From: Catajapyx aquilonaris
Lineage: Eukaryota
Length of the DNA: 33,239 nt
Direction: 5' to 3'
Assembly: GCA_000934665.2 (NCBI GenBank)
Contig: KZ539106.1
Span: 1-33,239, forward strand
Part shown: piece by piece, positions 7,373 to 29,412 of the stretch
How the letters are laid out: each line of letters starts with the position of its first letter
Position numbering within the stretch: position 1 is the first letter of the stretch
The notes under the pieces: model-generated
Told to the model about the DNA's origin: nothing
The model's input: the letters and a program-made list of their open reading frames with translations, nothing else
Databases searched by the model: none
Made by a program: the position numbers and the translations under genes

Positions 7373-7465
7373 GCCGCCATCTTGGGTGCGTTCCGACCGT
7401 CGCTTTAGTTCTGTTCGTATTCAAACACGACCGCAATGACGTCACTCCAAATCCGGATGCAGCCG
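7373..7465. promoter_or_regulatory. Bidirectional promoter module, copy 1 (between the zinc-finger gene and F-box unit 1)
   Basis: GCCGCCATCTTG (YY1/Pho-type) at 7373-7384, then GGTGCGTTCCGACCGTCGCT and AAATCCGGAYGCAGCC, all repeated upstream of other F-box copies. Confidence 0.6.
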
Positions 7466-7602: not shown

Positions 7603-7624
7603 NNNNNNNNNNNNNNNNNNNNNN
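7603..7624. other. Assembly gap (22 N) after a poly-G run
   Basis: N characters in the sequence. Confidence 1.
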
Positions 7625-7761: not shown

Positions 7762-9479
7762 ATGATGATGGAGACTGGAAGGATGCAGATGCAGATGGAG
7801 GCTGAGGAGAATGGTGGGAACGCTGAGGAGACAATGGCCACGAAGAGGAAGAGGGTGGACATGGGCAGGGGGGTGGAGGAAGAAGAAGAGGAGCCAGGGA
7901 GAAAGGTGAAATAAAATAGGAAAAAATAAAAAAAAATGCTGGTGTCATGTGCATGACATATGGCGCTGATTTTTACCTGTGTGGTAAGTGCTTCTTACGG
8001 TTGCAACCCAATAATATTACACTGCCTTCGTTTCAGATTGCTGGTGGATTGGGTGTCTCGGCGGTGCAGGCGAAGAGAGCGGGAGAAGCAGCGGCCGAAT
8101 CCAAGTTGCCTGGCAAGAAGCAGGTTCGTGTGACTCTTGCGGCCCAGAAGGGAGGCAGCAATGGCCGACATTGTCAAGTAGAAGCAACGGTGAGTGGGGG
8201 ATGACAATGAGCTAACTTGGCAGCCGAGACTCACCATACCTGATGATGATCATTGTCTATAGTCTATTGTGTACTACTTTACATACTTCTTGCTTTTTGC
8301 AGGCTAGGTGCAGGACCTTTTCCAGCCTGCCTGATGAGATGAAGGCAAAGGTGTTCTCGTACCTGGACTGGGGATCCCTCTACAGGAGCACGCTGGTGTG
8401 CAAAGATTGGTGCAGGGTGGCCACGGAGTGGATGGGTATTAGGAAGAAGATGACTTTGGACGGCCGGCACTTCACTCTTGAGGAATCTGTGGTTACGATC
8501 ACTAGCAACAAGACCCATCTGAAGGCAATTAACTTGAGGCATTGGGATGGAGAGAAGGCTGATTCACTGCTGAAAGTGGTAGCGGAGAGTCTTCCTCATC
8601 TGAAACATCTCCATGCTTTGGATATGTTTGTGCCACAGAATATGCTGGAACTGATTGCACGAGAGTAAGTAAAGGAGGGTCGATATGGTGCGATAAGTGT
8701 CATTTGTCATCAGTTCATTACTTTTATTTTTACCACACAGGTGCAGCGAACTGCAGGACATATCCCTGAGCAGTTTCAACTGGTATGGGGATTACTGGAG
8801 GCATCCCCTGGATATTTTGAGTTTCTGCCGAGAGCTAGAAAAGATAACCATACGTGGTAAATGTTTCCCTCCGCCATCGAACAAGGTCACTGGGCAACAC
8901 TGCCCGAAACTCACCAATGTGTCGCTTCTCACGGACACTGCTGACAGGGAAGTGGAAGTGCTCGCCTGTACTCTAGGGGGCCAGCTGAGGAAACTCACGG
9001 TTGAATATTTCAGTAATCCGGAGTCCTTCCTTCTCTTTGCACACTTCCCGCAGCTGGAGGAGCTGGAATTCCAAACCTGTGTCTTCCTAACCGATGCAGG
9101 CCTGGAAGATGGGATTGGGAGACTGCACAACCTCCGTAGCTTGACCCTACTATACCCCTACTACTGCACTGCACAAAGTTTGCGGAGGTTTTTCTCCAAC
9201 CCGAACATTGTGTGTAGCCTGGAGAAGCTCAGCCTTTCTTGTTGCTCACTGGACGACAGTTGCATATCAGCCATTGCTGCAAACTGCCCTCTCCTGACTC
9301 ATTTCTGCTTGATGAGAAACAACCGGGTCACCAACGCCCCGCTCCTAGACCTGGTGAGGAGGTGCCGCAATCTCCAGCGCCTCGTACTCAACTCGTGCAG
9401 CAAGCTGGACCTGGGCGCAGAGGCCCTGGGTCAGTTCCGAGCGGCCAGCACCACCCTCCAAATTTCTGCATCTCCCTGA
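7762..9479 (+). CDS. F-box/LRR (FBXL-like) protein, array unit 1, ~465 aa; exons 7762-7905, 8037-8189, 8303-8664, 8741-9479
   Basis: F-box FSSLPDEMKAKVFSYLD..SL....LVCKDW; cysteine-containing LRRs (CISAIAANCPLLTHFCL, LVRRCRNLQRLVL); exons join in frame (1398 nt) with GT-AG introns conserved across paralogues. Confidence 0.9.
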
Positions 9480-9816
9480 TTCCACCTGATTGACGCATCA
9501 CTCACAGTTAAACGTCACATCCTCGGAGGTTCATGTTGAAAGAAAAAAGTACAGCCCTTATGGTGGATGTAATGAGTTTGCTCTTGAAGTGAAACTCATT
9601 ATCGGTACACATTTTAAATGTGTAAGAAGTGGTTGAGTTTTTACGAGATAATCTTAAGATTAACAGTTTCAGTGCATTGAGTGGGACTGCTGTGCCTTAC
9701 TTAATGACAATCGTTGCAATAACTATCTGAATCCACATGTTGAAGGACATGAAATGCCGAATGTACAGTACTAATGTCTGTATTTTATACAGTCTTTTTA
9801 AGACCATGTATTGAAT

Positions 9817-10386
9817 TGAAATTAAACTGACACAACTGGAACCGAGATTTTCCATCGTGTAATGAGCATGTCCACCACGAATCGGATTCAATTGTAAATC
9901 ATTGGACGATCTTTCCAGAGAAAATTTACATAGCCCTTCAAATTGCTGACAGGATTTCCTCTCTTATTTTTACATTTTTTTTTTTGTCATTTGCATCCAA
10001 TTTTTTTAAAGAATCACTACGGTAATTTTGATCTGAAAAGATGAGCAACTTGGTTGTAGGCAGTGTCATTGTTCTGAAAGGTGTTGACGAGCTTGATGAA
10101 ACTTGAAGTATTTTTATTACAATAATGTGTAATGTGGATGCACAGAGAAGCAAGTGGTCCAGCACATGCAGTCGTAATAATAATACTCCTTGGGTCATGT
10201 TACGTCGCTGATGGTATTAATTGAAAAATCATGAAATATACATTTTAGGCTAATGAAATTTTTGTCATTGCTCTGTTTAGGCCATGACGCATGTTAGGGG
10301 TGACAAAATGAAGGCCAGTCAAATTTCCCTTTCGGAACGGAATGTGCAGAAGTGCCTGGGTGATTGGAAGAGCAATATTGGGTAAG
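9817..10386 (+). repeat. Duplicated downstream segment, copy A (copy B at ~16309-16879)
   Basis: Long colinear high similarity, e.g. CACGAATCGGATTCAATTGTAAATC and CGGAATGTGCAGAAGTGCCTGGGTG in both copies. Confidence 0.9.
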
Positions 10387-10841
10387 GACTGTCAGCAATG
10401 AAGGGAGACTATATTGATACCATGTGCTCAACACAAGTAGCAAGTGTTTTTTTCTTCGTCATGTAATGACCAAAGAGCATACGAACAGTACAGCACAGTA
10501 ATTGGCTGGTAAATGAATAGTCATGTTGTGCCTCCCTAATACGACTGGGACTGCTCCTTTGTAACTCACATTATCCTTACAAATATTAACTTAGTCGCAA
10601 TAAATAAAGAGGTCAACTGGGACAATAAATCACAACTTTTGCTGCCAATTAACATATTTTTTTGCCTGATCTATGCCTAAAATGCACACTATTCCATGCT
10701 AATTAATGAAACTATTTTTAAAATGCAAAATTAGCTCACCCATAAATTATGCAGGACCGAAAAAGGACACAATAATTTTTCTTGTGCCGTCTAATATGTA
10801 GAATGCTGTGAGCAATAATTGCATTATGCATTTATGCAAAA

Positions 10842-10871
10842 CTAGCAGTGGAACCCGTTCTTCGCACCCGT
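10842..10871 (-). mobile_element. Possible Helitron-type 3' terminus (relic)
   Basis: The minus strand reads ACGGGTGCGAAGAACGGGTTCCACTGCTAG|T: a degenerate GCGAAG-loop hairpin about 10 nt before CTAG, followed by T. Confidence 0.4.
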
Positions 10872-11050
10872 TACGTACCACCCGGCATCGTTACGTACAA
10901 CCTACAGCGATTTACTGGGAGTAGCATAAATTTTTGGAGATTGGAATGTCTGTGAATTCATAATCTTATAATTTGTGTCAGAAGATTTTTAAAAGGCAGA
11001 ATAAAATATTAATGACACGAAAATTTGAAATAAAAGTAGGAAGGAAGCGG

Positions 11051-11932
11051 AGGCTCCCCTAGAACAATAAATTACTGTGGCAAGACCGATTGATTGTTGT
11101 TTGATGAAAGCTATATTCCCTGATCCAAAAACCGCGTAACTGCACGAACGCGCACACACACAAAAAATCCATTTTCAAACACCCGGCCTGTCAAAATCTG
11201 ACATGCACTTATTATTATTCGGACCCACCGGGAATAACGGTCTGTATAATTTTAAGTGTAAATCCCCCCGCTCTCATAAATATAACCTAACGAGCCAAGC
11301 AGTTACATATGCTGGTCACGAAACGCGCTGGAAAAGTTTGGGCGCAAATATTCCTTTGCATTCCGCACTTTAGGGTGCGAATCAGCACTGCCGTCAGATG
11401 TAAGAAGACCGTAACTCAAAAACTAGTAGGGGTGAAAGTCGCATGCATGCCCTGCACTAATCCCCTCTGAGTCAGGGGGGATTAGTGCATGCGATTTTCA
11501 CCCTCATCAGTTTTTGAGTTACGGTCTTCTTACATCTGACGACTGCTGCAGTCGTTTCAGTTCCCCCCCCCCCCCAACTGCTTCTACCTGCATATGTACA
11601 GTATTATTGTATTTGTCTCGCAATATTAGAGCATATATGCTTGATGTTTCAGAGGAATTTTTGCGCCCAAACTTTTCCAGCGCGTTTCGTGACCATCATT
11701 TATTGTAACTGTTTGGCTCGTTAGGTTATACTTATGAGAGCGGGGGATTGACACTTAAAATTACAGACTGTTATTCCCGGTGGGTCCGAATAATAATAAT
11801 AAGTGCATGTCAGATTTTGACAGGCCGGGTGTTTGAAAAGGGATTTTTTTTTTGTGTGCGTTCGTGCAGTTGGGCGGTTTTTGGATCAGGGAATATAGCT
11901 TTTATCAAACAACGATCAATCTAGGGGAGCCT
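11051..11932. mobile_element. Non-autonomous foldback DNA transposon with ~300-bp inverted arms (~11051-11355 / ~11652-11932; weaker match out to ~10992/11952)
   Basis: AGGCTCCCCTAGA pairs with TCTAGGGGAGCCT; CAAACACCCGGCCTGTCAAAATCTGACATGCACTTATTATTATT has its reverse complement near 11790-11835; no ORF; no clear TSD. Confidence 0.85.
11383..11548. mobile_element. Palindromic MITE-like hairpin nested inside the foldback
   Basis: Perfect 32-bp arms 11393-11424 / 11509-11540, plus inner stems GGGTGAAA.TCGCATGCA/TGCATGCGATTTTCACCC and TGCACTAATCCCC/GGGGATTAGTGCA. Confidence 0.8.
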
Positions 11933-12539
11933 TGTGTTAATTTTGCTGCCTTCATTCGGCCGAGCCCGTCTTGGGACTCGCCAGTTCCGCGGAGAGGATG
12001 AGGAACCCAGCTCTGTGCAAGGGATAGGGGACTCGGAGGCTCTCAGTTATTAGCTCTTGGTAGTAGTACAAAGAGGATAATCGACGAGGGTTCTAAGAGA
12101 AGCGTAAGTATGAGTGGCTGTGTCCATTTAATCACAATTTATTATTCGACCATTATTTCCAGATGAAATCCGATCGAGGGAGGGAGGCACGGGCAGGGCC
12201 TTCGCAGATGGGCCGCGTCGGGGACCAGCAGGAGGGTTTGGTGCTGGGGACTACACGACGCATTGACCCCAGGTACCAGTGTTATCAACTTACAGGTGAT
12301 GACGAACGAGGCAGTGGATCAGTTTATGCGTAAGTAATCCTCATTGTCACAACGTACAAATTACAATCATTATTCTGACTAATCGTTTTCTCGTCTCCAG
12401 TTCTTCCGCAATAGACCGCGCAGTGCGTCGCAGCGCTATCCCGCGTGTTCATCTGGGTGTGTGTGTGGGTGATGTGTTTGCATGTGTTTGTACTTATATT
12501 TGTCTGTATGGCATTCAAATGTTCAATAAATGTTTTGTA

Positions 12540-12810
12540 ATATCAGTAATCAAACATACAACATGTTGACCTAGCTCGTTTCCCATATCATTTTTCAGTG
12601 GCCATAAAAAAAAACGGTAAGCATTCTTGCGCCATTCATTTGAGTCTTGAACTATAGATTCGGTCGTGCATTTCCAGCACTCCTTCCACCACCCTCTAGA
12701 ATATATTATAAATTCAGTGTTGTTTGCAGTCGTGCAGATACCTGAACTCGATTTTGCCATTGCATTGCGAAGATTTCTGCGACAACACAAAGGTGGACGT
12801 CTGCTGCCTT
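12540..12810 (-). pseudogene. Relic ORF resembling the P2X7 C-terminal (ballast)-like Cys-rich domain found in transposon accessory proteins
   Basis: PLCCRR...GICTT....EF...SR...DSNEWRKNAYRFFLW, then in a shifted frame GKRARSTCCMF. The recalled P2X7 pattern is LCCRKKPGACITTSELF...SR...NSRLRHCAYR.Y..W...PSCC.W. Confidence 0.45.
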
Positions 12811-13794
12811 CGTGAATGAAATGTAATACAGTTATTAGTTCCTTAATAGGATTCCTAATGCCAGCAGGTTGGAGCATTCCGAGTTTCGCTCAAAACGCGG
12901 GGTTCCTATTGTTATTAATTATTTAATAATTATTGTTTCCGAACATGGTATTTCTAGCGAAGCAAAGTCATTCCATGAGAAATGGGCCAGGGTGGTTGCT
13001 CGACCATCTAGTTATTTTTTAAAAAAATATTTTCACCATATAGGTAGTCTTGATATTGACTTGGTCAAAACAGGCCCACGGAAACGCATGCGCATGTAAA
13101 GAAAAAAAGTATTTCAGGTATCATGCTAGAGCTACTTGTGACATGCATGGCACAAATCGCACATGAAATTATGGGTTTTCGACACCTTAGAGTTCATATT
13201 TGCTGTCAAAAATGAAAAAAGAGAGACGCCCTGTAAAAAGTTATCAAATTATTTTAGGAGGTCCAGTTCCCCAGATGCTACAAGCCCGTGGTGTGTGGAT
13301 TAGGACTGCCCCTCCTTATCTGCTCCCCCGTGGCCTGCTCAAAGCCCTTGGCAACATATCCGGCCACTTGATTCGGAATGACCCCTATATTTCGGGCATT
13401 CTGGTTTTTTGACTGCCCCGAGGTCAAAAAGCCAAATTAATGCAAAATTAATGGTCATTGTTAGTTACGAGTGACCTAAGGGACACGCAAATAGCGATAA
13501 GATTCCCTGCGCGTTCGGTTTTTCTCATTCCCACTCCACTTGTGGCATGTGTAATGTGAATAATTTCCTCCAATTAATTGGACACTTATGCTAAAGCGTA
13601 TGGCCATCAAAAAAGACGATGGGTGTCCCAATTGAGTCCTTGTTTCCCGGCTATCCAATGGCATAATTTGTGTTCGTTTTGGTGCCTTTGCAATGGACAA
13701 AACATGAAAATCTGCTGTACATATAAAGGGATGCAAGCAGTAGTAATGAAATCTCTGGGCCAAGACGCAGCGCAGCAAAGGGGTAAGAATTCTC

Positions 13795-14770
13795 GTTAAT
13801 TTGAAATGTAAGGATGGTTGAGTTGTTACGAGATAATCTTAAGGTTAAAAGTTGTCACTAATATACTTTTTGAAACAATCGGTTTTCATGGCCAGTATTA
13901 ATTTCTCATATGTTGTACTTTCCCAACGTACGGTTTGTCACTTTCGTTAAACTTGTGCTTGCAATACTTTGCAGGACTGAAGTGCCTTATGTAATTGACA
14001 ATCACTGCCATACTACGTGGTGTCTGAATCCACATGGTGAAAGACCAGCGATAGTTTGTACACCGAATGCGCATTTTGGCTGTATTGAAAATGTATGCCA
14101 GGAACTGAAATTAAAGCAATATGCGGTAATGATTAAAAGTGATTAATATCCAGCCAGTTCCCATTCATATGTGTAGTTATTTATTTATTTATTTCACAAC
14201 CCCTTGCTAAGGCAAGGCCCTTTTCCGGGGACACAAGACTCCAGTTCCTAGAAATCAAAAATCAAATGCGAGCTTAATCAGGGCAAATGATCGTGGTGCA
14301 TATCAAAATGGATCGTGACATGCTTATGGCGTGAAAGGGAATTTTAATTAAACTGATGGCCGATGTACCTAGTTTGTTGTTACGCAATAAAGCTCATTGC
14401 CTTTTACGGACTGGGAATGTAAAAGAACGGTCGAGTTTTTACCAGCCGAAGAACGTTAGGGTCAAAAGTTCACTAATCTCAATTTTGGAACGAATCACTT
14501 TTAATCACCAGTGCATTAATATTTCATATGTTGTGGTTGCTGCAGTACGCTGAGTGGGATTGTTGTGCTTTACCGATTGCCAAATGTTGCAATAAGTATC
14601 TGAATCCACATGTTGAAGTACCAGCGAGGGTTTTTTTTATGCCGAATGTACTGTACTACCTACTGTATTTAATACAGACTGTTTAATCCCTTTTATTTTG
14701 AATTGAGATTAAACTGACACAACAGGAAACGAGGATTTTCCATCATGTAATGAGCATCTACAGCACGGTA
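13795..14770 (+). repeat. Orphan copies of F-box 3' flanking modules with no coding sequence
   Basis: ~13795-14165 matches ~19345-19670 and ~29475-29830; ~14320-14510 matches ~30455-30650. Confidence 0.75.
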
Positions 14771-14820
14771 ACTGGAGGAGGATCCTAAAAATTAGTGCCA
14801 AAATTCGGACCTGAAATTAT

Positions 14821-16255
14821 TGGAACACTGTGGAGACAAGGGCCACAAAGAGGAAGAGGGTCGAGTTGTGCAGGGGGGTGAAGGAAGAGGAGAAGCCACG
14901 GAGAAAGGTGAAAAAAAAAAATTTGAAGAAAATGTCGGTGCAATGTCTTTGGGGTGACTGCACCAGTACTGACCATCAGCCAATCATTTTGCATGGAGAT
15001 TGTGTACATACTTAAGCAATTTTCTTGTCAATTGCAGGGTAGCGTCAAGACCTTTTCCGACCTGCCCGACGAGATGAAAGCAAAGGTGTTTTCGTACCTG
15101 GAGGAGGAATCCCTCCGTACGGGTGTCGAACTGGTGTGTAAGGATTGGTACAAGGTAGCCAGGGAGTGGCTGGGTCATAGGAAGAAATTGACCTTGATTG
15201 GCCAGAAATTAACTCTGAGAGATTCAGTGTGGATGATCCAGAGAAACAGGACCTATCTGAAGTCGGTTACTTTGATGACCTGGTTTGGAGCAAATGTTAA
15301 TTCGCTGCTGAAAGAAGTAGCCAAGAACCTTCCTCTTCTCGAGTGTCTCAGTATTTATGATGCTTCGGTGTCACAGAGTGCGCTGGAACTGATTGCACGA
15401 GAGTAAGTAACCAGCGAATTTTTGGTGAAAGTAGTGCGTAAAGCATCATTTATGATCAGTTCATTATTTTAATTTTTACGACACAGGTGCAGCCAACTGC
15501 AGTGCGTCCACCTACACAATTTCCATTGCAATGAGGGGTACTCCAAGCATCCCCTGGACATTATGAGTTCTAGCCACGAACTAGCAACAATGGCCATATA
15601 TGATTTTCGGTTACCTCCACCATCGAAGGAGGCCACTCGGAGAAACTGCCCGAAACTGACACACCTCTCGCTTCTTGGGGGTACCGCCGACAGTCAAATG
15701 GAACCATTGGCCTGCACTCTGGGAGGCCAGTTGAGGAAACTCACAATTAGTTTCTTCAATGAGCAGCAGTCCTTCCTTCTACTGGCACACTTCCCACAGC
15801 TGGAGGAGCTGGAAATCAATAACTGTTTCTTCTTGACCGATGATGGCCTGAACGATGGGATCGGGAGACTGCACAACCTCCGTAGCTTGACCCTGCAATA
15901 CTTCTACCACTGCACTGCACAAGGTTTGCGGAGGTTTTTCTCCAACCCAAACGTGGTCGGCAGACTTGAGAAGCTCATCCTTTCTCGTTGCCCAACTCTG
16001 GATGACAATTGCGTATCGGCCATTGCCATGAACTGCCCTCGTCTGACTGATTTCCGCTTGTGGCAAACTGACAACGTCACTAACGATGCACTGCTGGGGT
16101 TGGTGAGGAGATGCCGCAACATCCGGCACCTTGAGCTCTGCGAGTGCAAGAAGCTGGACCTGAGCTCGGAGGCCCTGGATCAGTTCCAGGCGGCCAACAG
16201 GGGTCGACAGCTACAAATTTCCACGTCACTAACTCAATTCAAAAGTTGGATATGA
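14821..16255 (+). pseudogene. F-box/LRR unit 2: 5'-truncated (no promoter module, no ATG) but otherwise open; exon remnants 14821-14907, 15038-15402, 15487-16255
   Basis: Begins mid exon 1 (WNTVETRATKRKRVELC); in-frame TGA at 14812 upstream; F-box and LRR exons uninterrupted; exon 2 absent. Confidence 0.7.
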
Positions 16256-16308
16256 TTCCATATGTACGCTGAACGTACAATCGACTGTATTGATACCTAA
16301 TGTTCAGC

Positions 16309-16879
16309 TGAAATTAAACTTGACTCGACAGTAACAGAGTTTTTCGATCATGTAATGAGCATGTCCAGCACGAATCGGATTCAATTGTAAATCTCTGGAT
16401 TGGACGATCTAGCCAGAACAAATTTACATAGCCCTTCAAATGCTGACAGGATTTTCTCTCTTTGTTTTTAAATTTTTTTGTCATTTACATCAAATTTTTT
16501 GAAAGAATCCCCTACGGAAATTTTGATCTGAAAAGATGAGAAACTTGGTTGTAGGCAGTGTCATTGTTCTGGAAGGTGTTTGCGAGCTTGATGAAACTTG
16601 AAGCATTTATTACAAAAATGCGTAATGTGGACGCACAGAGAAGTGGTCCAGCACATGCTGTCGTAAGAATAATACGTGACTTTTTCCTCCTTGGGTCATG
16701 TTAAGTCACTAATGGTATTAATTGAAAAATCATGAAATATACATTTTAATCTACTGATTACTGTGTTTAGGTCATGACGCATGTTAGGGGGCGACAAAAA
16801 TGAAGGCCAGTCAAATTTTCCCTTTCGCAACGGAATGTGCAGAAGTGCCTGGGTGGTTGGAAGAGCAATATTGGGTAAG
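16309..16879 (+). repeat. Duplicated downstream segment, copy B
   Basis: Colinear with 9817-10386. Confidence 0.9.
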
Positions 16880-17113
16880 AAAGTGCAAGGAATGGTCACA
16901 CGTTCAAGAGCGAGTGTCGTAATTCTTTTGCAGGTGCGGCGGACTGTGAATTGTTGATGTGTGATGCTGCAACTTCTGCGTTTGTCTCGCTCTGGAGGTG
17001 TGAGAGAAGGTCGATATTATTAGTCTATAGCACTTCATGGACTCGGATTAGGACCAGAAATTATTATTAATTAATTATCTCTCATAATTTCCTGGAAAGT
17101 AGCTCAAGAGTCG

Positions 17114-17375
17114 GCCGCCATCTTTGGGGTGCGTTCCGACCACCGTTTCCGGTCCGTTCCCTCCTCTCCTATTCGGACGCACACCAAATCCGGACGCAGC
17201 CCACATTTATGTCTATTGCACTAATAAGCAAGTGTTAATTTACATAATGAGCAAAATTTAATTGCATTGTGCAGCATGTGCGATTTCATTATTTGACAGG
17301 TTTAACTCATTGCGTTGGTTCGCATCGTCGGGGAAATATGGCAACAGGTGGTTGAGCAAATCCAAGATGGCCGCC
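17114..17375. promoter_or_regulatory. Promoter module of unit 3 (outward-facing YY1-type motifs)
   Basis: GCCGCCATCTTT at 17114-17125 and CAAGATGGCCGCC at 17363-17375. Confidence 0.6.
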
Positions 17376-17545
17376 GACAATGGAACGCTTCGAATATTGT
17401 TTCCCTCTTTGTTGAGCTTCGGGTTGATTGTTGCGACGAGTTAGACGCCTTCCGATTGTTGGAGAGGGGTCCCGCAGGATTGGAGAGGGTCCGGAGCAGG
17501 ATTGGGGAAGGAAGGAAGGAAGGACACTGGGGAAGCAGGGTGGTG

Positions 17546-19212
17546 ATGGAGACCAGGAGGATGAGGAGGCTGAGGGAGGCTGAGGAGAGGGGAAGAAACG
17601 CTGTGGAGACAAGGGCCATGAAGAGGAAGAGGGTGGACGAAGAAGAGGAGACACGGAGAAAGGTGAATAAATGGAAATAAAGTGTCCCTGCTATCTGTAT
17701 GGCTTTGGAGTGACCGCACCAGTGCTGCTCAACTAGTGGCCCTGCCGAGGCGTATCCCAACCGACCTCCGATTTTTGAGATTGTTGTGCTTTTGTATTCT
17801 CCTGCCATCTACTTTTCAGGTGCCGAAGTCCCAAATTAATTGGGATATGCCCAAGGTCACATATTCCAGTTGTAAAATTGGTCCGCGATGGAAAATCCTA
17901 TTTTCTTGCAGCACAAAAAAAGCTGTTTATCTCAAAATTAACTCTGGTTGGGATATGCTGTTTTTCCTCTGAGTGCCTCAGTTGTTTATTTACGGTACTT
18001 GTTTACATACCTAACCCATTTCTTTGCAATTGCAGGCCAGCGTCAAGACCTTTTCCGACCTGCCTGATGAGATGAAGGCAAAGGTGTTCTCCTACCTGGA
18101 CAGGAAATCCCTCTGCACGAGCACCCTGGTGTGCAAGTATTGGTTGAAGGTAGCCAAGGAGTGGCTGGGTCTTAGGAAGAAAGTAATTTTGAACCTGCAG
18201 CGATTTACTCTGGAGGAATCGGTGCGTGTGATCATGAACAACAGGAGTCACCTGATGTTGGTTACTCTGATGGACTGGAATGGAGTGAATGCTGATCATC
18301 TACTGAATGTAGTAGCCAAGAGTCTTCCTCACCTGAAGTTTCTCAGTGTTCATAATATGTGGGTGCCACAGAATATGCTGGAACTGATTACACGGGAGTA
18401 AGTAAAGGAGGGTCAATGTGGTGCATTAAGTATAATTCAGTTCATAAATTTCATTTTTACGACACAGGTGCAGCGAACTGCAGGAAATCCGCCTAAGAAA
18501 CTTCAACAGGAATGAGGATTACTGCAGGCATCCCCTGGACATTTTGAGTTCCTGCCAAGAGCTAGAAAAGATAACCATAGATGGTCGATGTTTCCCTCCG
18601 CCATCGAACAAGGTCACTGGGCGAGACTGGCCAAAACTCACCAACTTGTCGCTTCTCACGGACATTGCTGACAGGGAAGTGGAGGTGCTCGCCTGCACTC
18701 TAGGGGGCCAGCTGAGGAAACTGGCGTTTCAATCCTTCATTAATCCGGAGTCCTTCCTTCTCCTCGCACACTTCCCTCAGCTGGTGTAGCTGAAATTAGG
18801 ATGCTGCCACCACTTAACTGATGCTGGCCTGGAAGACGGGATTGGGAAACTGCACAACCTCCATAGCTTGACCCTATCGGAGATCACCTCCTGCACTGCA
18901 CAGGGGTTACAAAGGTTTTTCTCCAAGCCGAATGTTGTGGGTAACCTTGAGGAGCTCCGCCTAGATAATTGCTCAAAGCTGAACAACAGTTGCATATCAG
19001 CCATTGCCATGAACTGCCCTCTCCTGACGGATTTCTACTTGATGGAAAACAGCCAGGTCACCAAAGCCCCGCTCCTTGACCTGGTGAGGAGGTGCCGCAA
19101 TCTCCAGTACCTCTATCTCAGCTGGTGCAGGAAGCTGGACCGGAGGACCAGAAAGGCCCTGGATCAGTTCCAGGCTGTGAACAGCAAGCTTCAAATTCAT
19201 GTACTCCCTTGA
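17546..19212 (+). pseudogene. F-box/LRR unit 3 with an in-frame TAG at 18787-18789; exons 17546-17662, 18036-18397, 18468-19212
   Basis: Paralogous CTG GAG GAG CTG reads CTG GTG TAG CTG here; the same frame continues to the normal stop at 19212; exon 2 absent. Confidence 0.85.
17750..17958. mobile_element. Old MITE-like insertion in intron 1 of unit 3
   Basis: Imperfect inverted ends GCGTATCCCAACC...TTTTGAGAT / ATCTCAAAA...GGTTGGGATATGC; absent from the paralogous introns. Confidence 0.5.
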
Positions 19213-19695
19213 TTCCACCTGATTGACGCATCACTCAAAGGTACAAGGTCACATCCTAAGAATTCCATGTTGCACATGAACAAACACAAAAAGTCCAGCC
19301 CTTATGGTGGATGTAATGAGTTTGAAGTGAAACTCATTGTCTGTAGGAATTTGAAATGCGTAAGAGTGGTTGTTACGAGATAATCTTAAGGTTCACAGTT
19401 GTCACTAATCTACTTTTTGAAACAATCAGTTTTCATGGCCATTATTAATGTTTTATGTCGTACTTTCTCAACATACTGTTTGTCACTTTTGTTAAACTTG
19501 TGCTTGCAATACTTTGCATTATTGCAGTGCCTTATTTAATTGACAATCACTGCCACACTGTGTTTGTACACCCAATGTGCATTTGGCTGTATTGAAAATG
19601 TACGCCTGGAATTGAAATTAAAGCAATATGCGGTACTGATTGAAAATGATTAATTTGCCACCAGTTCTCTTTTATTCAGCTCCGTTCCTTTGTTT

Positions 19696-19992
19696 GTGAA
19701 GAGGAAGAGGATGGACATGGGCAGGGGGATGGAGGAGAAGCCCGCAGCTTGGGTGGAGGGCTGAGGAAACTCACAGTCCGTGGCTTCATCTATCAAAAGT
19801 CATTCCTTGTCCTTCCACACTTCTCTCAGCTGGAGGAGCCGGAGCTCCAACACTGTTTCTCCCTAACCGACTCTGCCCTGCAGGACGGGATTGGGAAACT
19901 GCGCAACCTCCATAGCTTGACCCTGGTAAATTTAACCTCCTGCACTCCGGAAGGTCTGCAGAGGTTTTTTTCCAGGCTGAATGTGGTCAGCA
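19696..19992 (+). pseudogene. Internally deleted F-box/LRR relic (exon 1 end fused out of frame to mid-LRR exon)
   Basis: VKRKRMDMGRGMEEKP is directly followed, in another frame, by LRKLTVRGF...LQRFFSRLNVV. Confidence 0.85.
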
Positions 19993-20807
19993 AAAGCTCA
20001 TTATGTATACGGGTTTGGTTGTAGGAACAGTTGAGTTTTTTTTTTTTTTTTAAAAGGGAAAGAATGTTAAAAGTTGCCATGCTGTTTGAAACAATCAGTT
20101 ACATTGTTGTTGTTTTTTTCATGGACAGTATTAATTGCTTATGTTGTACTTTCCCAACGTACAGTTTGTTACACTTTTGAGCGGGATGATTGCAGTGCCA
20201 CATGTAATTGACAATCACTGTGATAAGGTGTGGTGTCTGAATCCACTTGTACGCTGAATGTACTGTACAATCAACTGTATTGATAAAATGTGCTCAACTG
20301 AAATTAAACTTTGACTCAACAGTAACCGATGTTTATTTTTTTCCAATCATGTAATGAGCATGTATGGGACTGTACGTAATTGGGCTGATAAACAAATGGG
20401 ACCGGCAACTACGAAGAACATGTCCCCAAAGATTTGTGCCGCTTTTTAAAGCTGGATCGTACAGCTCTGAAGTAGTCTAGGAAGAAAAGTAGACGAAATA
20501 TTCTGGGATTATCTCTCAATGGCGGCCATCTTGAAGATGCATTCCGACGCCCGCTTTGGTTGCATTCCGACGCCCGCCCTCTGTTCCTATTGCCAGGTCC
20601 GTTCCTTCGTAACTTAATAAATAAATAAATAAATATACCGAGACTGCTCCTTTGTCACTCATATTATGGTCACCAATATTAACTGAGTGACCCGACCTGT
20701 CCCGAGTGTCAAATTAGCTGAAATTAGGACCAGAAATTATTAATTATCGCATATAATTTCATGCCCGATTTCATGTATAATAACGACAAGGTCGGAAGGT
20801 CCAAGTT

Positions 20808-21084
20808 CCGCCATCTTGGGTGCGTTCCGACCGTCGCTTACGGTCCGTTCCGTACGCTCATATTCGGACGCAACCACAAATCGTGCCACTCCAAATCCGG
20901 ACGCAGCCGTATTACATATCATTCAATTTTTTACTAATTAAACTAATTAGCAATTAGTTTATATAATGTACAAAAAAATGCGATTGTGCCTGATTGCACT
21001 AATTGTCCCATTTAACTGTCTCCGTTACAGTTCTATTGCGAGGAATCTGGCAACAATGCCGAATGAAATCCAAAGATGGCCGCC
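20808..21084. promoter_or_regulatory. Promoter module of unit 4 (an extra degenerate half-copy lies at ~20521-20590)
   Basis: CCGCCATCTTG at 20808-20818 and AAAGATGGCCGCC at 21072-21084. Confidence 0.6.
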
Positions 21085-21281
21085 GACAATGGACCAAGTT
21101 CGAATTATTTCGTTTTGTAACTTTTTTGATTATTCTTCTTCTTTCGTGTCTCCGTTGATTGTTGGCCAGCCTCAGTTCGATTGCGGCTTGATTGTTTGGA
21201 GGACAGAAGGTCGATCCGGACCCCCACAGGAGAGGGTGGGATTTGGAAAGGGACGGGCACTCCGGAGGGACACTAGGAAGG

Positions 21282-22628
21282 ATGGAGACTAGAAGGATGA
21301 AGAGACAGAGAGAAGCTGAAGAGAAGGGAAGGTACACAAGGGCATCGGGAATGAAATGGATGAACTACTGCAAGGGTCGGCCCTGGAGAAAGGTGAAGAA
21401 TAAAAAAAGCCATCCTTTGTTGACACTTTGTTTACAACAACAATTTGTTGACAATTTCAGACCTTTGCCAGCCTGCCTGATGAGATGAAGGCAAAGGTGT
21501 TCTCGTACCTGGACTGGGGATCCCTCTACAGGAGCGCGCTGGTGTGCAAGGATTGGTGCAGGGTGGCCAAGGAGTGGATGGGTATTAGGAAGAAGATGAC
21601 CTTGGATGGCCGGCACTTCACTCGGGAGGAATCGGTGCAGGTGATCATGAACTACAGGACCCACCTGAAGTCGGTTACTCTGATGCACTGGAACGGAGAG
21701 GATGCGGATTCACTCCTGAAAGTAGTAGCCCATAGCATTCCTCACCTGAAGCGTCTCAGTGTTTGGGATACCTCGCTGTCACAGAATATGCTGGAACTGA
21801 TTGCACGAGAGTAAGTAAAGGAGGGTCGATATAGTGTAATTTATGATCAGTTCATTATTTTCATAACACAGGTGCATCGAACTGCGAGACATCTCCCTAA
21901 GAAGTTTCAGCTTGAATGAGGATTACTCGAGGAATCCCCTTGACATATTGAGTTCCTGCCGAGAGCTTGAAAAGATAACCATAGATGGTCGAGATTTCCC
22001 TTCGCCATCATACAAGACCACGGGGAGAAACTGGCCGAAACTGACTGACGTGTCGCTTCTCAAGGACAGCGCCGATATGGAAGTGGGAGTGCTCGCCTGC
22101 ACCGTTGGAGGCCAGCTGAGGAAACTCACTCTTGAATCAGAAATTTTACGGGACGCCTTCCATCTGCTCGCACGCTTCCTTCAGCTGGAGGAACTGACAC
22201 TCCAATCATGTTTCTTCTTGACCAATGCTCGTCTGCACAACGGGATCGGGAGACTGCGGTACCTCCGTAGATTGACCCTGAGAAAGACCTACTGCACTGC
22301 ACAAGGTTTGCGGAGGTTTTTCTCCATGCCGTACGCTGTGGGTAGCCTTTCACATTGCTCAAACCTGGACGATGGTTGCATATCGGCCATTGCCATGAAC
22401 TGCCCTCTCCTGACTCGTTTATGGCTGGTGGAATGCCACAAGGTCACCAACGGCTCGCTCCTGGACCTTGTGAGGAGATGCCGCAAACTGAAGTACCTTC
22501 ACCTCAACTGGTGCCTCGAGCTGGACCGGAGTGCGGAGGCCCTCAAACAGTTCAGGGCCGCAAGCAGCACACTCCAAATATATTCATTTCCCTCCTTCAC
22601 GCCACCAGTCGAACCTATCACTCTGTAG
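21282..22628 (+). CDS. F-box/LRR unit 4, ~405 aa; exons 21282-21392, 21461-21810, 21872-22628
   Basis: Exons join in frame (1218 nt); F-box TFASLPDEMKAKVFSYLDW; lacks exon 2; 5-aa deletion in one LRR. Confidence 0.85.
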
Positions 22629-22864
22629 TCGCAATGTCGTATCCTATGCATACCAGACTAGTGCATGCCTCATCAGGGTGGATGAATATTGTGCAGATCC
22701 TCCACTGGTTAATTTGGATCGTTAACATGACTGGCATGTTAAAAGGGAACATAATTATGTAAAAGGATGTTGGATGGGACCAGTTTGATGCTAAGCAAAT
22801 CTCATTATCTATATGGATTTGAAATGTAAGAACTACTGAGATTTTTACAAGCTAAAGAATGTTA

Positions 22865-23025
22865 AGGCCATTTCACAAAAAAATGTCGCGCGGCAAACGG
22901 CGCGCGTTGCGGCAAATTTATTATTTATATTTGTTATTGCCAACAATTGGCAACAATAAATACAAATCAAAAATTTGCTGCAACGCGCGCCGTTTGCCGC
23001 AGGACATTTTTTTGTGAAATGGCCT
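22865..23025. mobile_element. PIF/Harbinger-type (Tourist-like) palindromic MITE, 161 bp, TTA target-site duplication
   Basis: AGGCCATTTCACAAAAAAATGTC...GACATTTTTTTGTGAAATGGCCT flanked by TTA (22862-4, 23026-8); empty paralogous sites near 14455 and 30580. Confidence 0.9.
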
Positions 23026-23466
23026 TTAAGGTCAAAAGTTGTGGTCACTAATCAGCTTTTGAAACAGTTGCATTGTTTTCATGGCCAGTATTTGTTTTTC
23101 ATGTAGCGTGTTTTCCTACGTACCGTTTTTTATTCGTCGTCCAACTTGTAATTGCAATACTTGGAGGGTGATTGTGGTGCCTTATTGAAAATTATTAATT
23201 GACAATCACTGCGAGAAGGCGTCAAAAAGACCAGCCGTAATTTGTACGGCAAATGAAGGATATACCTGTATTGAAAATGTACACTTGGAATTGAAATTAA
23301 AGGCGATTCACACTTTCACAGTTGAGTTTTCCCATCCTGTAAAATGAGCATGCCTACCAATATTAACTTACAGTTAGTGTCAGCCCTGCAGGAGCTCTAA
23401 TTAGGGCCAGAAATTATTAATTATGGCGTATATATAATTTCCCCGGATAATAATAACGAAGAGTCG

Positions 23467-23752
23467 GCCGCCATCTTGGGTGCGTTCCGACCGTCGCTTC
23501 CGGGTCCGTTCCCTCTGCTCATATTCGGACGCTACCACAGGGCGCGTCATTTCTAAATCCGGACGCAACCCCACATTTCTGTCTATTGTACTAACAAGCA
23601 AGTGTTAATTTACTTTGAGTGCATCATGCAATTATTCTAATTATGCAGCGTGTGCGATTTACACTATTTGACAGGTTTAACTGGCCGCTTTGGTTCGAAT
23701 CGGGCGGGGAAATATGGCAACAGGTGGTTGAACAAAATCCAAGATGGCCGCC
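23467..23752. promoter_or_regulatory. Promoter module of unit 5
   Basis: GCCGCCATCTTG at 23467-23478 and CAAGATGGCCGCC at 23740-23752. Confidence 0.6.
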
Positions 23753-23950
23753 GACAATGGAACGCTTCGAATTTCTTTCTGTTTAATTGTGTTTCCTTAA
23801 TTGTTGAGCTTCGGGTTGATTGTTGCGACGGGTTAGACGCCTTCCGATTGTTGGAGGGGGTCCCGCAGGGGCCTCTGGAGATAGTACATCCGGAGCAGTG
23901 AGAGGGAAAGGGACGAAGGAGGTTGAAGGACACTGGGAAGCAGGGTGGTG

Positions 23951-25763
23951 ATGGAGACCAGGAGGATGAGGAGGCTGGGGATGGCGAGGGAAGCGGAGGA
24001 GAATGGTTGGAACACTGTGGAGACGAGGGCCATCAAGAGAAAGAGGGTCGAGTTGTGCAGGGGGGTGGAGGAAGAGAAGCCCTGGAAGAAGGTGAAAAAA
24101 AAATGGAATGCAAATTATTGTTGGTGTCATCTGTATGGCTTTGGGGTGACCGCACCAGTGCTGTCCGTCAGCCAGTCTTTTGCCTAATTAATTTTCACAT
24201 AACTGCATCATTTTCAGCGCTTTTAATGATTGCAAACATTTGTTACACTTTGGTTTTGTTTCAGATTTCTTCTGGGTTGAGTGTCTCGGAGGTGCAGAGG
24301 AAGACACCAGGAAAATCGGTGGGCGATTCCAAGATTCGTGACAAAAAGCTGGCTCGTGCCTGCAAGACTAGGAAACGCAGCAACCGGCGACAATGTCAAA
24401 TAGAAGCAACGGTGAGAGCTTATCCCTGCTACTGGGTTGCAGAGGCCCACAATACCTGAATGTAAAATTGTTCAGATATGTGTTTACACACTGAAGCAAT
24501 TTCTTGATAATTGCAGGCCAGCGACAAGACCTTTTCCTGCCTGCCAGACGAAATGAAGGCAAAAGTGTTCTCGTACCTGGAGGAGGAAACCATCCGTACG
24601 AGGGTCGTACTGATCTGCAAAGATTGGTACAAGGTAGCCAGGGAGTGGCTGGGTCTTAGGAAGATGATGGTCTTGGATGGCCAGCGTTTGACTCTGGAGG
24701 CATCAGTGCAAGTGATCATGAGCAACAAGACCCATCTGGGGTCAGTTACCTTGAGGTTCTGGACTGACGAGGATGCTGATTCACTGCTGAAAGTAGTAGC
24801 CGAGAATCTTCCTCATCTGAAGCGGCTCAGGATTCGTGATGCCCAGGTGTCCCAGAACACGCTGGAACTGACAGCACGAGAGTAAGTAACCAGCTAATTT
24901 TTGGTGGAATCAGCACATAAGGAGTGTCACTTATCATCAGTTCATTCCTTTCATTTTTACGACACAGGTGCAGCCAACTCCAGCACATCCACCTAATAGG
25001 CTTCCACTGGGATAAGTATTCAGTGCATCCCTTGAACATTTTGAATACCTGTAGGGAACTGGAGAAAATAACCCTCTCTGGCTATGTGTATCCTCCGCTA
25101 TATGAGGAGGCCAGTGGGAGAAATTGGCCGAAACTCACCGACGTTATGCTTCGCATAACATCCAATTCTGATAGGGAAGTGGAACTGCTTGCCCGCAGTC
25201 CGGGGTGCCAGCTGAGGAAGCTCACTGCCAGTTTACTTCTCAAACAAGAGTCCTTCCTTCGCCTCGCACACTACCCACAGCTGGAGGAGCTGGAAATCCA
25301 AGACTGTTTATTCCTAACTGACACTGGCCTGCACGATGGGATTGCGACACTGCGTCACCTCCGTACCCTGACCCTGGCAGAGACCCACCGCTGCACTGCA
25401 CAAGGTCTGCGGAGGTTTTTCTCCAAACCAAACGTGGTCGGCAGACTTGAGAAGCTCGACCTTTCTTGTTGCCCAAACGTGGACGATGGTTGCATATCGG
25501 CCATTGCTGCGAACTGCCCTCTCCTGACTCATTTCTACTTGATGGATTGCCACGAGGTCACCAACAGCTCGCTTCTAGACCTGGTGAGGAGATGCCGCAA
25601 CCTCCAGCGCCTTCACCTCCCCAGGTGCAACAAGCTGGACAAGAGCGCGGAGGCCTTCATTGAGTTCCAGAAATTAAGCAACACGCTCATAATTTCTGGA
25701 TTTCCCTTCTTCATGCCACCAGTCATACGGATCCTTCGCAGTCGTAAGGTCGTATCATACTAA
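23951..25763 (+). CDS. F-box/LRR unit 5, ~482 aa; exons 23951-24091, 24265-24411, 24517-24881, 24968-25763
   Basis: In-frame join (1449 nt), canonical splice sites, F-box TFSCLPDEMKAKVFSYLEEE, LRRs intact. Confidence 0.9.
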
Positions 25764-25840
25764 TTCCCTGCTGTACACAAACAGACAAGTACGTGCTTCA
25801 TCAGTGTGTACGAATATTGTGCAGTTCCTCCACTAGTAGA

Positions 25841-26409
25841 GCCGGCCTTGGTGGACTAGTGGTTAGCGCGCTCGCCTCTGGTCCCAAGGTTGTGGGTTCG
25901 AACCCGGCCGAGGTCGGTGACTTTTCTCCGGGTGGTAGAAAAGTCAGAGTGCGCCTTCCTTCGGAGGGGAAGTAAAGCCGTTGGTCCCATGTGCTTGTGA
26001 CATTGCACGAGTGCACGTTAAAGATCCCCAGAGTGGCCGAATTTCCAGGAGGAGGACCACCCTCTGGCGTCGGTGTTGGGCCTTAGAGGCAGAAATAGGC
26101 CGACGGTAACGTACGCGCCCACAGATGTTAAGGTCCTGGGTTCGATCCCAGCCCGGGGACACCCCCTTCATCTCGTGCAGAGTTCATTGGGTCACCTCTG
26201 GCTTCGTCTCGGGTGGTATTTCCTACAGACTAAACCACCTGGGGGAGTTCACTAAAAATGGCCACATAAAGACATTGCACTGCACCTTGCACATCCCCTC
26301 CTGTCATCCCGCCCGTGGGCCCGGGCGCTTCAATAATTTGGTTCCAAATATGTACATCGTACAAATAAAGGTCCGTGCTACATGCCGAGAAGGCCAAGCA
26401 CTACCCGGA

Positions 26410-26464
<55 letters not shown>

Positions 26465-26470
26465 GTTATT
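25841..26470 (+). mobile_element. tRNA-derived SINE, apparently dimeric, with a (TAT)n tail
   Basis: A box TGGACTAGTGG (~25852), B box GGTTCGAACCC (25895-25905), body CCTTCCTTCGGAGGGGAAGTAAAGCCGTTGGTCCC recalled from insect SINEs, second T-arm/B box CTGGGTTCGATCCCAG (~26136-26151), (TAT)n at ~26409-26470. Confidence 0.85.
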
Positions 26471-26666
26471 ATGTACAGTACAGCGCAGTAATTGGCTAGC
26501 AAATGAATAGCCATGTGCTTCCCCTAATGTTACTGGGACTGCTCCTTTGTGTCTCATATTATGCTTACCAAATATTAACTTAGTGTACCGACCGTCAGCT
26601 CTAATTAGGGCCAGACAATTACTAATTATCGCATAATTGATTTCCTGGATAATAGCTCAACGGTCG

Positions 26667-26955
26667 GCCGCCATCTTGGGTGCGTTCCGACCGTCGCTTA
26701 AGGTCCGTTCCTTCTGCTCATATTCGGACGCAACCTCAAAAATTAAAAGAGGCACTCAAGATCCGGACGCAGCCCACTGTTATGTCTATTGTACTAATTA
26801 GAAAATGTTAATTTGCATAACGTGCAACATTAATTACTGCAGTGTGTGCGAGGCAATTACACTATTTGTCCGGTGGTCAGGTTTAACAGGCTGCTGTTGT
26901 TCGAATCGGGGAAATCTGGCAACCTGGCAAGCAGACAAAATCCAAGATGGCCGCC
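26667..26955. promoter_or_regulatory. Promoter module of unit 6
   Basis: GCCGCCATCTTG at 26667-26678 and CAAGATGGCCGCC at 26943-26955. Confidence 0.6.
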
Positions 26956-27167
26956 GACAATGGAAAGCTTGGGATTTCATGCTGACGTTTTATAGACGTC
27001 CGTGGTTTATATTTCCCCTTTTTGTTGAGGCTTAATTGTTGGAGGGGGTCCCGCAGGGCAAGAAATATAGATCTTGCCCGCAGGGGGCCTCTGGAGATAG
27101 TACAACCGAAGCAGTGAGTGGGGAAGGGACGGAGGAGGAAGGAAGGACACTGGGAAGCAGGGTGGTG

Positions 27168-29412
27168 ATGGAGACCAGGAGGATGAGGATGGCGAGGGAG
27201 GCTGAGGAGAGGGGAAGAAACGCTGTGGAGACCAGGTCCATGAAGAGGAAGAGGGAGGACATGAGCAGGGAGGTGGAGGAGAAGCCACGGAGAAAGGTGA
27301 AAAATTTTTTTTTGAAGAAAATGTTGGTGTAATCTGTATGGCTTTGGAGTGACCGCACCAGTGATGTTCACCTTGTGGCCATTTCAGTCATGATTATTGT
27401 AGCTAGTCGTGAGCGTAGTGTGCTTGTGGCAGTTACGCTGAACTCGACGACGACAAAATTTACCTTGGTGTATTTCCAGGAAATTTCAAGAAACCTGTTA
27501 ATTTTTGTGCGCGACTAAACTGCATCGTAGTGCAGATGCAGTTATGAGGATACCGTTGCATTTTATTTATTTTTTTGGGACTAAGCTGCTAATTTTGGCA
27601 TGGTTGGTGCGAATCTCATAGGGCCGAATTCAGAGAGGTTGCTTAACTTAAACGTGCCTGATTAAATCCTTTAGTCATCCTCGATTAGCAAATTTAAAAG
27701 TGCTAGCAAGTGCGATTAGGGGGCGTTTAGCGCTAATCGCCGTCTTTGTATTAGCAGGTTGATTAAATTTGCTAATCGAGGATGACTAAAGGATTTAATC
27801 GGGCGCGTTTACGTTAAGCAACCTCTCTGAATTCGGCCCATAATGTCTAATATTATCGGCCAATCTTTTTGACTGGATCTACCGTGCTAAGTTTCATGCG
27901 ACGTGATGATTATATGTGCGTCTTACAGTTGCAATTCTCTCATTTTGTTTCAGATCGCTGGTGGGTTGAGTGGCTCGGAGGTTCAGGTGAATACAGCGGG
28001 AAAATCAGTGGCTAAGGCCAAGATTCGTTACAAGAAGCAGACTCGTGTGACGAAGGGAGGCAGCAGCCAACAACATTGCCTAGTAGAAGCCACGGTGAGT
28101 GGGGAGGCTAATCGCCTTGGTAACTGGGCTGCCAAGGCTCACGAATGCTTGCACTTGAAATGATATTTGTTTATATGCGCTACTTGTTTACATATCTAAC
28201 CAGTTTCTTTGCAATTGCAGGCCAGCGTCAAGACCTTTTCCAACCTGCCTGATGAGATGAAGGCAAAGGTGTTCTCGTACCTGGAGGAGAATACCATCCA
28301 TAAAAGAGTCACACTGGTGTGCAAGGATTGGTTCAAGGTGGCCAAGGATTGGCTGGGTATCAGGAAGAAAATAGTTTTGAACCGGCATCAATTGACTCTG
28401 GAGGAATCGGTGCATGCGATCATGAACAACAAGGCCCACCTGACGTCGGTTACTCTGATGTACTGGGATAGAGAGGATGGTAATTGTCTACTGCAAGTAG
28501 TAGCCAAGAATCTTCCTCACCTGAAGCGTCTCCATACTTTGGATCTGTTGGTGTCACAGAATACGCTGCAACTGATAGCACAACAGTAAGTAAAGGAGGG
28601 TCGATATGGTGCGTTAAGTGTCAGCTATGTTCAGTTCACTACCCTTTTTTTTACTACACAGGTGCAGCAAACTGCAGGACATATGCCTAAGATGTTTCCA
28701 CGGGTATGAGGAATACTGGAGGCATCCACTGGACATTTTGAGTTCCTGCCGAGAGCTAGAAAAGCTGATCATAGATGGTGGATGTTTGCCTCCGCCATCG
28801 AACAAGGTCACTGGGCAAGACTGGCCGAAACTCACTGAAGTGTCGCTTCACATGGACAACGCTGACAGGGAAATGGAAGTGCTAGCCCGCACTCTGGGGG
28901 GCCAGCTGAGGAAACTCGTAGTCAGTGTCTTCACCAACCTGAAGTCCTTCCTTCTCCTCACACACTTCCCTCAGCTGGAGGAGCTGAAAATCTATTCCTG
29001 CCAGAAATTAACTGATGCTGCCCTGCATGACAGGATTGGGAGACTGCGCAACCTCCGTAGCTTGACCCTGTTCATGTTCCACTCCTGCACTGCACAAGGT
29101 CTGCAGAGGTTTTTCTCCAAGCCGAATGTTGTGGGTAGCCTGGAGAAGCTCAACCTTTCTTATTCCTCAATTCTTGACGACAGTTGCATATCAGCCATTG
29201 CCGTGAACTGCCCTCTCCTGACTCATTTCCACTTGGTGAGAATCAACGAGGTCACCAAATCTCCAATCCTTGACCTGGTGAGGAGGTGCCGCAATCTCCA
29301 GTACCTCCAACTCAAGGAGTGCAGGAAGCTGCACCTGTGCGCGGTGGTCCTGGGTCAGTTCCAGGCGGCAAACAGCAAGCTTCAAATTTCTGCATGTCCA
29401 TGTTGCACATGA
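27168..29412 (+). CDS. F-box/LRR unit 6, ~461 aa; exons 27168-27296, 27954-28094, 28221-28585, 28662-29412
   Basis: In-frame join (1386 nt), canonical splice sites, F-box TFSNLPDEMKAKVFSYLEE, LRRs intact. Confidence 0.9.
27621..27839. mobile_element. Palindromic MITE (Harbinger-like), 219 bp, 3-bp ATA duplication, in intron 1 of unit 6
   Basis: GGGCCGAATTCAGAGAGGTTGCTTAAC... / ...GTTAAGCAACCTCTCTGAATTCGGCCC with ~78-bp arms; ATA on both flanks. Confidence 0.9.

Follow-up and report, generated by a model that had tools for sequence, protein, structure and literature searches.

A tandem array of F-box/leucine-rich repeat genes with a conserved scaffold and a variable predicted binding face in Catajapyx aquilonaris

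Organization of the array

The subject of this study is a tandem array of genes for F-box/leucine-rich repeat (LRR) proteins in a 33,239-nucleotide stretch of DNA from Catajapyx aquilonaris (GenBank assembly GCA_000934665.2, contig KZ539106.1, positions 1 to 33,239 of the forward strand; referred to as the window), the base composition of which was 44% GC with a CpG observed/expected ratio of 0.71. The array (7762-29412, plus strand; ~22 kb) consisted of six units, U1 to U6, and two remnants. A DNA repeat search revealed six copies of each exon-sized block in this interval, and tblastn with unit 1 as the query recovered the same six units together with two partial ones. Both the number of units and the boundaries agreed with an initial annotation of this DNA: position 7762 is the ATG of U1, and 29412 is the final base of the U6 stop codon. 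Each of the six tandem copies, however, was a multi-exon gene, evidently intact in three cases only. The spacing between the starts of successive units was ~3.0-3.7 kb, except for 6.7 kb between U1 and U2, and the pairwise synonymous distance (dS) between units was 0.20-0.57. A copy of the 3' flank type that follows U3 and U6 was present at 13798-14168 (85% identical to 29479-29831) with no preceding gene; this orphan flank suggests that a unit once located between U1 and U2 was lost, which would explain the wider spacing there. Six units, two remnants, and lesions in three of the six copies (see below) correspond to tandem duplication in which genes are gained and lost.

The exon model, built from the conserved GT/AG junctions and the frames, predicted a gene with as many as four exons, three or four in each unit. 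Exon 1 encoded a charged, KRKR-containing peptide; exon 2, which was basic, was found only in U1, U5, and U6 (153, 147, and 141 nucleotides, respectively, all multiples of three); exon 3 encoded the F-box and LRR1-3; and exon 4 encoded LRR4-12 and a terminal strand. The frame from ATG to stop was open in the same three units. U1 (7762..9479; exons 7762-7905, 8037-8189, 8303-8664, and 8741-9479 including the stop codon) appeared to be intact on the basis of its GT/AG junctions and frames together with Pfam and AlphaFold, and its product consisted, in order, of an acidic/KRKR N-terminus, the basic segment of exon 2, the F-box with LRR1-3, and LRR4-12 with the terminal strand. U5 (23951..25763; exons 23951-24091, 24265-24411, 24517-24881, and 24968-25763) and U6 (27168..29412; exons 27168-27296, 27954-28094, 28221-28585, and 28662-29412) also appeared to be intact. 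Intron 1 of U6 was lengthened by an insert that held a 77-nucleotide inverted repeat (arms 27621-27697 and 27763-27839, 96% complementary and separated by 65 nucleotides) and that, judging from its sequence, looks like a miniature inverted-repeat element.

The remaining three units, all without exon 2, carried lesions. U2 (14815..16255; exons 14815-14907, 15038-15402, and 15487-16255) was truncated at the 5' end: the 5' half of exon 1 was lost, and there was no in-frame ATG. It was also the most divergent copy (pairwise dS of 0.50-0.55 against the other units) and is probably defective. U3 (17546..19212; exons 17546-17662, 18036-18397, and 18468-19212) was interrupted in LRR8 by an in-frame TAG (18787-18789) at a codon that specifies Glu in the other copies; the DNA-run contigs aligned at this site showed no alternative letter, and U3 is a probable pseudogene. 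In U4 (21282..22628; exons 21282-21392, 21461-21810, and 21872-22628), exon 1 was degenerate with the KRKR motif lost, and six residues were deleted: five in LRR10 and one in LRR9. In addition, an open frame at 19650..20024 (plus strand) fused an exon 1-like piece to LRR7-9 only and is a remnant (tblastn match at 19762-19974, 54% identity). Downstream of the array, an orphan exon 2 (30132..30284, plus strand), which retained its own AG and GT, is a remnant of a further unit.

A conserved element with CCGCCATCTTGG, identified as a DNA repeat family and by blastn, was located ~390-500 nucleotides before the ATG on the plus strand: 7374..7446 (U1), 17117-17189 (U3), 20808-20880 (U4), and 26668-26740 (U6). 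A more diverged copy was detected by blastn at U5, and none at U2. This element may be the promoter or the 5' untranslated region of each unit; its core is similar to a YY1-type promoter motif. An assembly gap of 22 N (7604-7625), preceded by a G-run (the two together at 7590-7625), lay ~140 nucleotides upstream of the U1 start codon.

Domain architecture and fold

PF12937 (F-box-like) of Pfam matched all three of the F-box exons scanned, with scores above the cut-off of 24.3 bits: 35.7 (U1), 34.3 (U2), and 38.1 bits (U4). Within the F-box, LPDEMKAKVFSYL was invariant in all six copies, and the F-box profile matched those of beta-TrCP, TIR1, FBXL17, and SKP2, for which complexes with Skp1 have been solved. 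Twelve LRRs of 23-29 residues and the terminal strand followed directly after the F-box. When the profile of the LRR exon was compared with PDB sequences, matches were found with FBXL2 (8.5e-25) and FBXL17 (4e-19).

AlphaFold2 was applied to U1 exon 4 with an alignment of the paralogues and two distant relatives, and gave a model (predicted local distance difference test (pLDDT), 91.2; predicted template modeling score (pTM), 0.90) with ten strand-helix units, the strands of which were at repeat positions 3-7. The mean pLDDT of the exon 3 model was 79.6: 60-68 in the three F-box helices and ~87-92 in the three LRR units that follow. The best PDB matches of the model by Foldseek were FBXL17, COI1, FBXL2, TIR1, and SKP2, with identities of 15-18% in the structural alignments. 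These results show that the genes encode F-box proteins of the FBXL type, i.e., an F-box and an RNI/FBXL-type LRR solenoid, as had been proposed initially. FBXL2, FBXL17, SKP2, and plant TIR1 and COI1 likewise have an N-terminal F-box directly before an LRR horseshoe with repeats of ~26 residues, whereas the proteins of the array differ from them in a private repeat signature (GGQLRKL and CTAQGLRRFFS) and the charged KRKR N-terminus.

A similar layout, in which an N-terminal F-box precedes ~13 degenerate LRRs of 20-30 residues, is described for the SSGP-71 proteins of the Hessian fly, which bind host Skp (PMC4617103), and the array may by analogy encode secreted effectors that mimic the F-box proteins of a host. 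We regard this as very improbable: SSGP-71 is secreted, whereas the N-termini of the array proteins were highly charged, with KRKR in place of a signal-peptide-like hydrophobic stretch (translations judged by eye). The likeness of the two families is one of layout.

Relatives of the family

No relative with an identity above ~50% was found in an index of 5.8 billion proteins or in a HMMER scan of 1.84 billion representatives. A word-indexed search gave 17 weak, generic matches among 3659 longer candidates (the best was 46% identical and covered 22% of the query) and no match among 1277 candidates of similar length. The HMMER scan returned 13,244 hits at E <=0.001, nearly all of which were generic LRR matches in multiple stretches. 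Among the 166 of these matches that were listed, only two proteins, P0031 (386 amino acids) and P0115 (397 amino acids), were colinear with the profile, over 362 and 339 of its 388 positions (186 and 151 bits), respectively. Both resembled the array in length and in where the F-box lies, and both had the GGQLRKL motif, which was found in none of the other matches listed; they were ~28-31% identical to the array over the LRR exon. Because of this common colinearity, F-box position, length, and motif, P0031 and P0115 are considered to be true relatives, and the family therefore occurs beyond this genome in a diverged form. The term "lineage-specific" in the initial annotation holds in that relatives above ~50% identity were absent from these searches, but not in the strict sense, given two colinear full-length relatives at ~30% identity. 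An Atlas comparison gave generic FBXL clusters only, and the cluster nearest to P0031, of chordate F-box proteins annotated as "hypothetical protein", is a lead only. In a metagenome scan, none of the 190 pattern matches was confirmed. Orthology with a named FBXL protein was ruled out: the two best PDB matches, FBXL2 and FBXL17, each aligned in one stretch, 57-69 profile positions long, and the identity in structural alignments was 15-18%.

Conserved scaffold and variable face

In a codon alignment of exons 3 and 4 of the six units (388 columns), the amino acid never changed at 119 columns, where dS and the nonsynonymous distance (dN) were 0.33 and 0.002, respectively; the values for LPDEMKAKVFSYL alone were 0.42 and 0. 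Since silent changes had accumulated at the invariant columns, their conservation is attributed to purifying selection, and not to recent conversion or homogenization. The twelve repeats were then stacked by position, and the mean pairwise amino acid difference and the dN/dS ratio (omega) by the Nei-Gojobori method were calculated for each position. In the core, the amino acid difference was 0.09 (position 1), 0.21 (position 4), and 0.30 (position 6), compared with 0.65, 0.68, 0.78, 0.82, and 0.63 at positions 5, 7, 8, 10, and 11, where omega was 1.86, 1.82, 0.97, 1.25, and 1.59; omega at positions >=12 was 0.45. When codon-model classes were pooled, omega at positions >=12 was 0.52-0.53, below 1 with a p of 1e-7.

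The variable sites were periodic and located at repeat positions 5-11. In the structural model, positions 3, 5, and 7 are outward-facing strand residues and positions 8-11 form the loop leaving the strand; as far as the model shows, the variable zone comprises the concave sheet together with its rim. The four conserved strings and four sets of variable strings in the initial annotation were all present as quoted, both in the alignments and in the stacked repeats, and its assignment of the variability to the outward strand positions was correct, but incomplete as regards the strand alone, since the adjoining loop also varied. It had also proposed mapping on an AlphaFold model, which placed the selected and variable sites at the outward strand and the following loop, so that they clustered at the concave face and rim.

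Exchange between the copies

The nearest neighbor of a unit changed along the gene. The trees of seven partitions were in conflict, grouping U1 with U4 in the F-box (99%), U3 with U6 in the next partition (97%), and U4 with U5 at the end (85%). In the F-box region, 4 of 129 bases distinguished U1 from U4, compared with 212 of 939 in the rest of the sequence (P 1e-7); exchange between copies is thus shown for one tract at least.

In DNA runs from the same organism, 394-435 contigs per run were found on 5.3 kb at an identity of at least 95%, and their summed depth was 150-690 at the conserved exon parts and 25-40 at unique spacer. In the region 17400-22700, DNA-run contigs linked sequence of the U3 type with sequence of the U4 type (e.g., 17723 with 21468, and 18180 with 21698). 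The contigs suggest that further close mosaic paralogues are present elsewhere in the genome, with contig depth taken as a hint and not as a copy number. The same near-identical contigs and cross-unit joints, together with the draft state of the assembly and its N run, might point to a mis-assembled repeat array in which the mosaic copies and lesions are chimeras. This explanation is scarcely credible: independently built DNA-run contigs matched unit-specific stretches exactly, e.g., 518 bases at 21803-22320 (the runs may be the source of the assembly), and the units differed from each other at 20-30% of their DNA, so that they can be assembled apart.

Tests for positive selection

Goldman-Yang site models (F3x4) were implemented in our own code, with one tree per partition, branch lengths fixed from M0 except for a global scale, and naive posteriors. 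The value of omega was 0.76 under M0 and 0.61-0.76 across estimates. M2a (-5096.43) was preferred to M1a (-5122.88) on the seven partition trees: the likelihood ratio test (LRT) statistic was 52.9 (p 3e-12), with 16% of sites at an omega of 3.4. The comparison of M7 with M8, also proposed in the initial annotation and run here with our own models on the six copies, favored a class with omega >1 (LRT, 68.3), as did that of M8a with M8 (LRT, 56.9). The M1a-M2a comparison gave an LRT of 27.5 when U3 was omitted and 49.7 with 13 small partitions. With the intact U1, U5, and U6 alone on a star tree, in which there is no topology to get wrong, the LRT was 18.6 (p 9e-5) and omega was 3.1. When a four-class gamma distribution of the codon rate was added, the LRT was 9.73 (p 0.008), with an omega of 2.5 at 18% of sites. 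In eight data sets simulated under M1a, the LRT was 0-1.7 in all cases. The positive class comprised 16-26% of sites at an omega of 2.5-3.4 across the model variants.

Twenty-eight sites had a posterior >0.8 for omega >1, 25 in the LRRs and three in the F-box region. Twenty-four of them were located in LRR1-12, and 20 of these 24 were at positions 3, 5, or 7-11 (Fisher p 2.5e-9); 14 of the 24 belonged to the textbook xxLxLxx class (p 1e-5). In the run with the intact copies, 28 of 33 high-posterior sites were at positions 3, 5, or 7-11. Positive selection was found in the substrate-binding domain rather than the F-box, with an LRT of 52.9 that fell to 9.7 in the harshest variant, and with borderline pooled tests (see below). 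A minority of binding-face sites very probably evolves above the neutral rate. Our reading of the face as a whole, as defined by the model, is that its rate of evolution equals or exceeds the neutral rate and is far higher than that of the scaffold.

Interpretation

Taken together, we consider it probable, if not firmly established, that the locus is a tandem birth-and-death array of FBXL-type genes for diversified receptors, in which the scaffold is fixed and the binding face outpaces silent sites. The F-box of these proteins would dock on Skp1-Cul1, the concave LRR face and the rim loops would choose the protein for ubiquitination, and the KRKR motif may direct nuclear import. Selection holds the leucine core and the helical back of the repeats constant, as it does the F-box, and the outward strand residues and following loop (repeat positions 5-11) outpace silent sites; the copies would act as receptors that differ in specificity and together follow a shifting range of targets.

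Several points weigh against this interpretation. The case is based on six sequences from one genome, and the positive-selection data on these six were obtained with models in our own code, fixed branch lengths, and naive posteriors; the models treat single-nucleotide changes without exchange inside partitions, and multi-nucleotide changes could matter. The LRT decreased to 9.7 once variation in the codon rate was allowed. After LRR1 had been shifted by one residue following the exon 3 model (the structure-corrected register), the pooled class tests became weaker: omega at positions 3, 5, and 7 was 1.62 (p 0.067), against 2.2 (p 0.006) uncorrected, and that of xxLxLxx was 1.31 (p 0.18), against 1.5 (p 0.052) uncorrected; the Nei-Gojobori omega for xxLxLxx was 1.02. 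A recombination test by clustering of homoplasies was marginal, with 136 of 2000 permutations reaching the observed value. The exon model is a prediction from sequence, with exon 2 in three of six units, and lesions were present in half of the copies (U2, U3, and U4), so that part of the family is decaying.

Some of these points are those expected from neutral birth and death ("genomic drift"), in which redundant duplicates keep the fold, the exposed residues drift without constraint, and the family heads to decay. The three lesioned copies and two remnants, the high overall omega, the textbook exposed class at an omega of 1.0-1.5 (not clearly above 1), and the small LRT under rate variation agree with drift; however, every model variant, including that with the three intact copies alone, preferred a class at an omega of 2.5-3.4 over one at omega = 1, the null simulations never exceeded 1.7, and the strong constraint on the scaffold extended to the copies with lesions. 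Drift as the whole explanation is unlikely.

Diversification may also be real and directed toward proteins of the organism itself, the copies having divided or acquired endogenous substrates (e.g., in the germline or development) without any foreign or selfish target. Most characterized animal FBXL proteins have endogenous substrates, and the window contained no pointer to immunity, the neighbors of the array being HAUS4-like and C2H2 zinc-finger genes. On the other hand, a recurrent change of the surface at the same positions of every repeat, with rapid turnover, would, by analogy, be more typical of families driven by conflict. We take endogenous targets to be a possibility of some weight, although not the expected outcome.

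Similarities to the array are found in several known systems. Lineage-specific, fast-evolving F-box families of plants and nematodes form tandem clusters with rapid gain and loss (PMC8120010, PMC3030570, PMC3719486), and the array is likewise tandem, with an F-box that is conserved and a substrate-binding domain that changes fast. In aphid parasitoid wasps, large lineage-specific F-box/LRR expansions of 232 and 68 genes have been reported for two species, in a paper the title of which describes the genomes as very GC-poor (PMC7257214); the GC content of the window differed from these at 44%, and the likeness is one of description. Among the matches listed in a literature search on F-box/LRR expansion and diversifying selection in invertebrates, no title or opening of an abstract described such a family from an invertebrate genome.

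The selected sites of the array follow the LRR period, and six copies with remnants were seen here; nematode F-box families, in comparison, use FTH/FBA2 domains and not LRRs. Positive selection acts on sites of both nematode and plant F-box families. In the LRRs of plant resistance (R) genes, solvent-exposed strand positions (xxLxLxx) are periodically hypervariable, the leucine core is conserved, and tandem paralogues exchange sequence; the array resembles these LRRs in all three respects. It differs from them in the output domain, which is an F-box in the array and NB-ARC or a kinase in R genes, and in the loop after the strand, which varies as much as the strand in the array.

To our knowledge, animal F-box/LRR proteins outside nematodes are mostly few, old, and conserved. 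Plants, nematodes, and certain insects already provide examples of F-box expansions; the array adds another, and its R-gene-like periodicity is the most attractive feature. If the interpretation as diversified receptors is true, the array adds an animal case to the idea, derived from plants and worms, of E3 adaptors as arms-race receptors. A more far-reaching proposal is that a non-vertebrate animal has a germline-encoded, probably nuclear repertoire with R-gene-like LRRs, the hypervariable concave and rim residues of which are reshuffled among the tandem copies by conversion, and which is wired to the Skp1-Cul1-F-box (SCF) complex, so that fast-evolving proteins of foreign or selfish origin (from viruses, transposons, symbionts, or drive factors) are bound and degraded in one step; this we put forward as doubtful. 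The insect origin and the foreign targets named in the initial annotation found no support in these data. Three intact, closely related receptors with differing surfaces (U1, U5, and U6) would provide a handle for finding binding partners.

Neighboring genes and other features

A HAUS4-like (augmin subunit 4) gene was located upstream of the array (3400-5670, plus strand). Its last exon matched Pfam HAUS4 (E 4.4e-7) and, weakly, Xenopus HAUS4 (E 0.005); the first exon gave no match against PDB, and none of 270 candidates matched the protein in the word-indexed protein search. The faint likeness to the Xenopus protein and the CpG ratio of 0.71 make a vertebrate source improbable. C2H2 zinc-finger genes flanked the array on the minus strand, one upstream (6554-7123) and one downstream (31757-32794); the latter was read as two adjoining open frames with a stop at their junction (32353/32354) and may be broken. 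A search of the window against Rfam gave no match, and no tRNA gene was found in it.

Two repeats were also observed: a complex tandem repeat at 2400-3212 with nested periods of ~32, 65-67, 100, 131, and 189 nucleotides (94% matches for the 189-nucleotide period), which open frames cross on both strands, and a (TAT)21 microsatellite between U5 and U6 (26410-26472).

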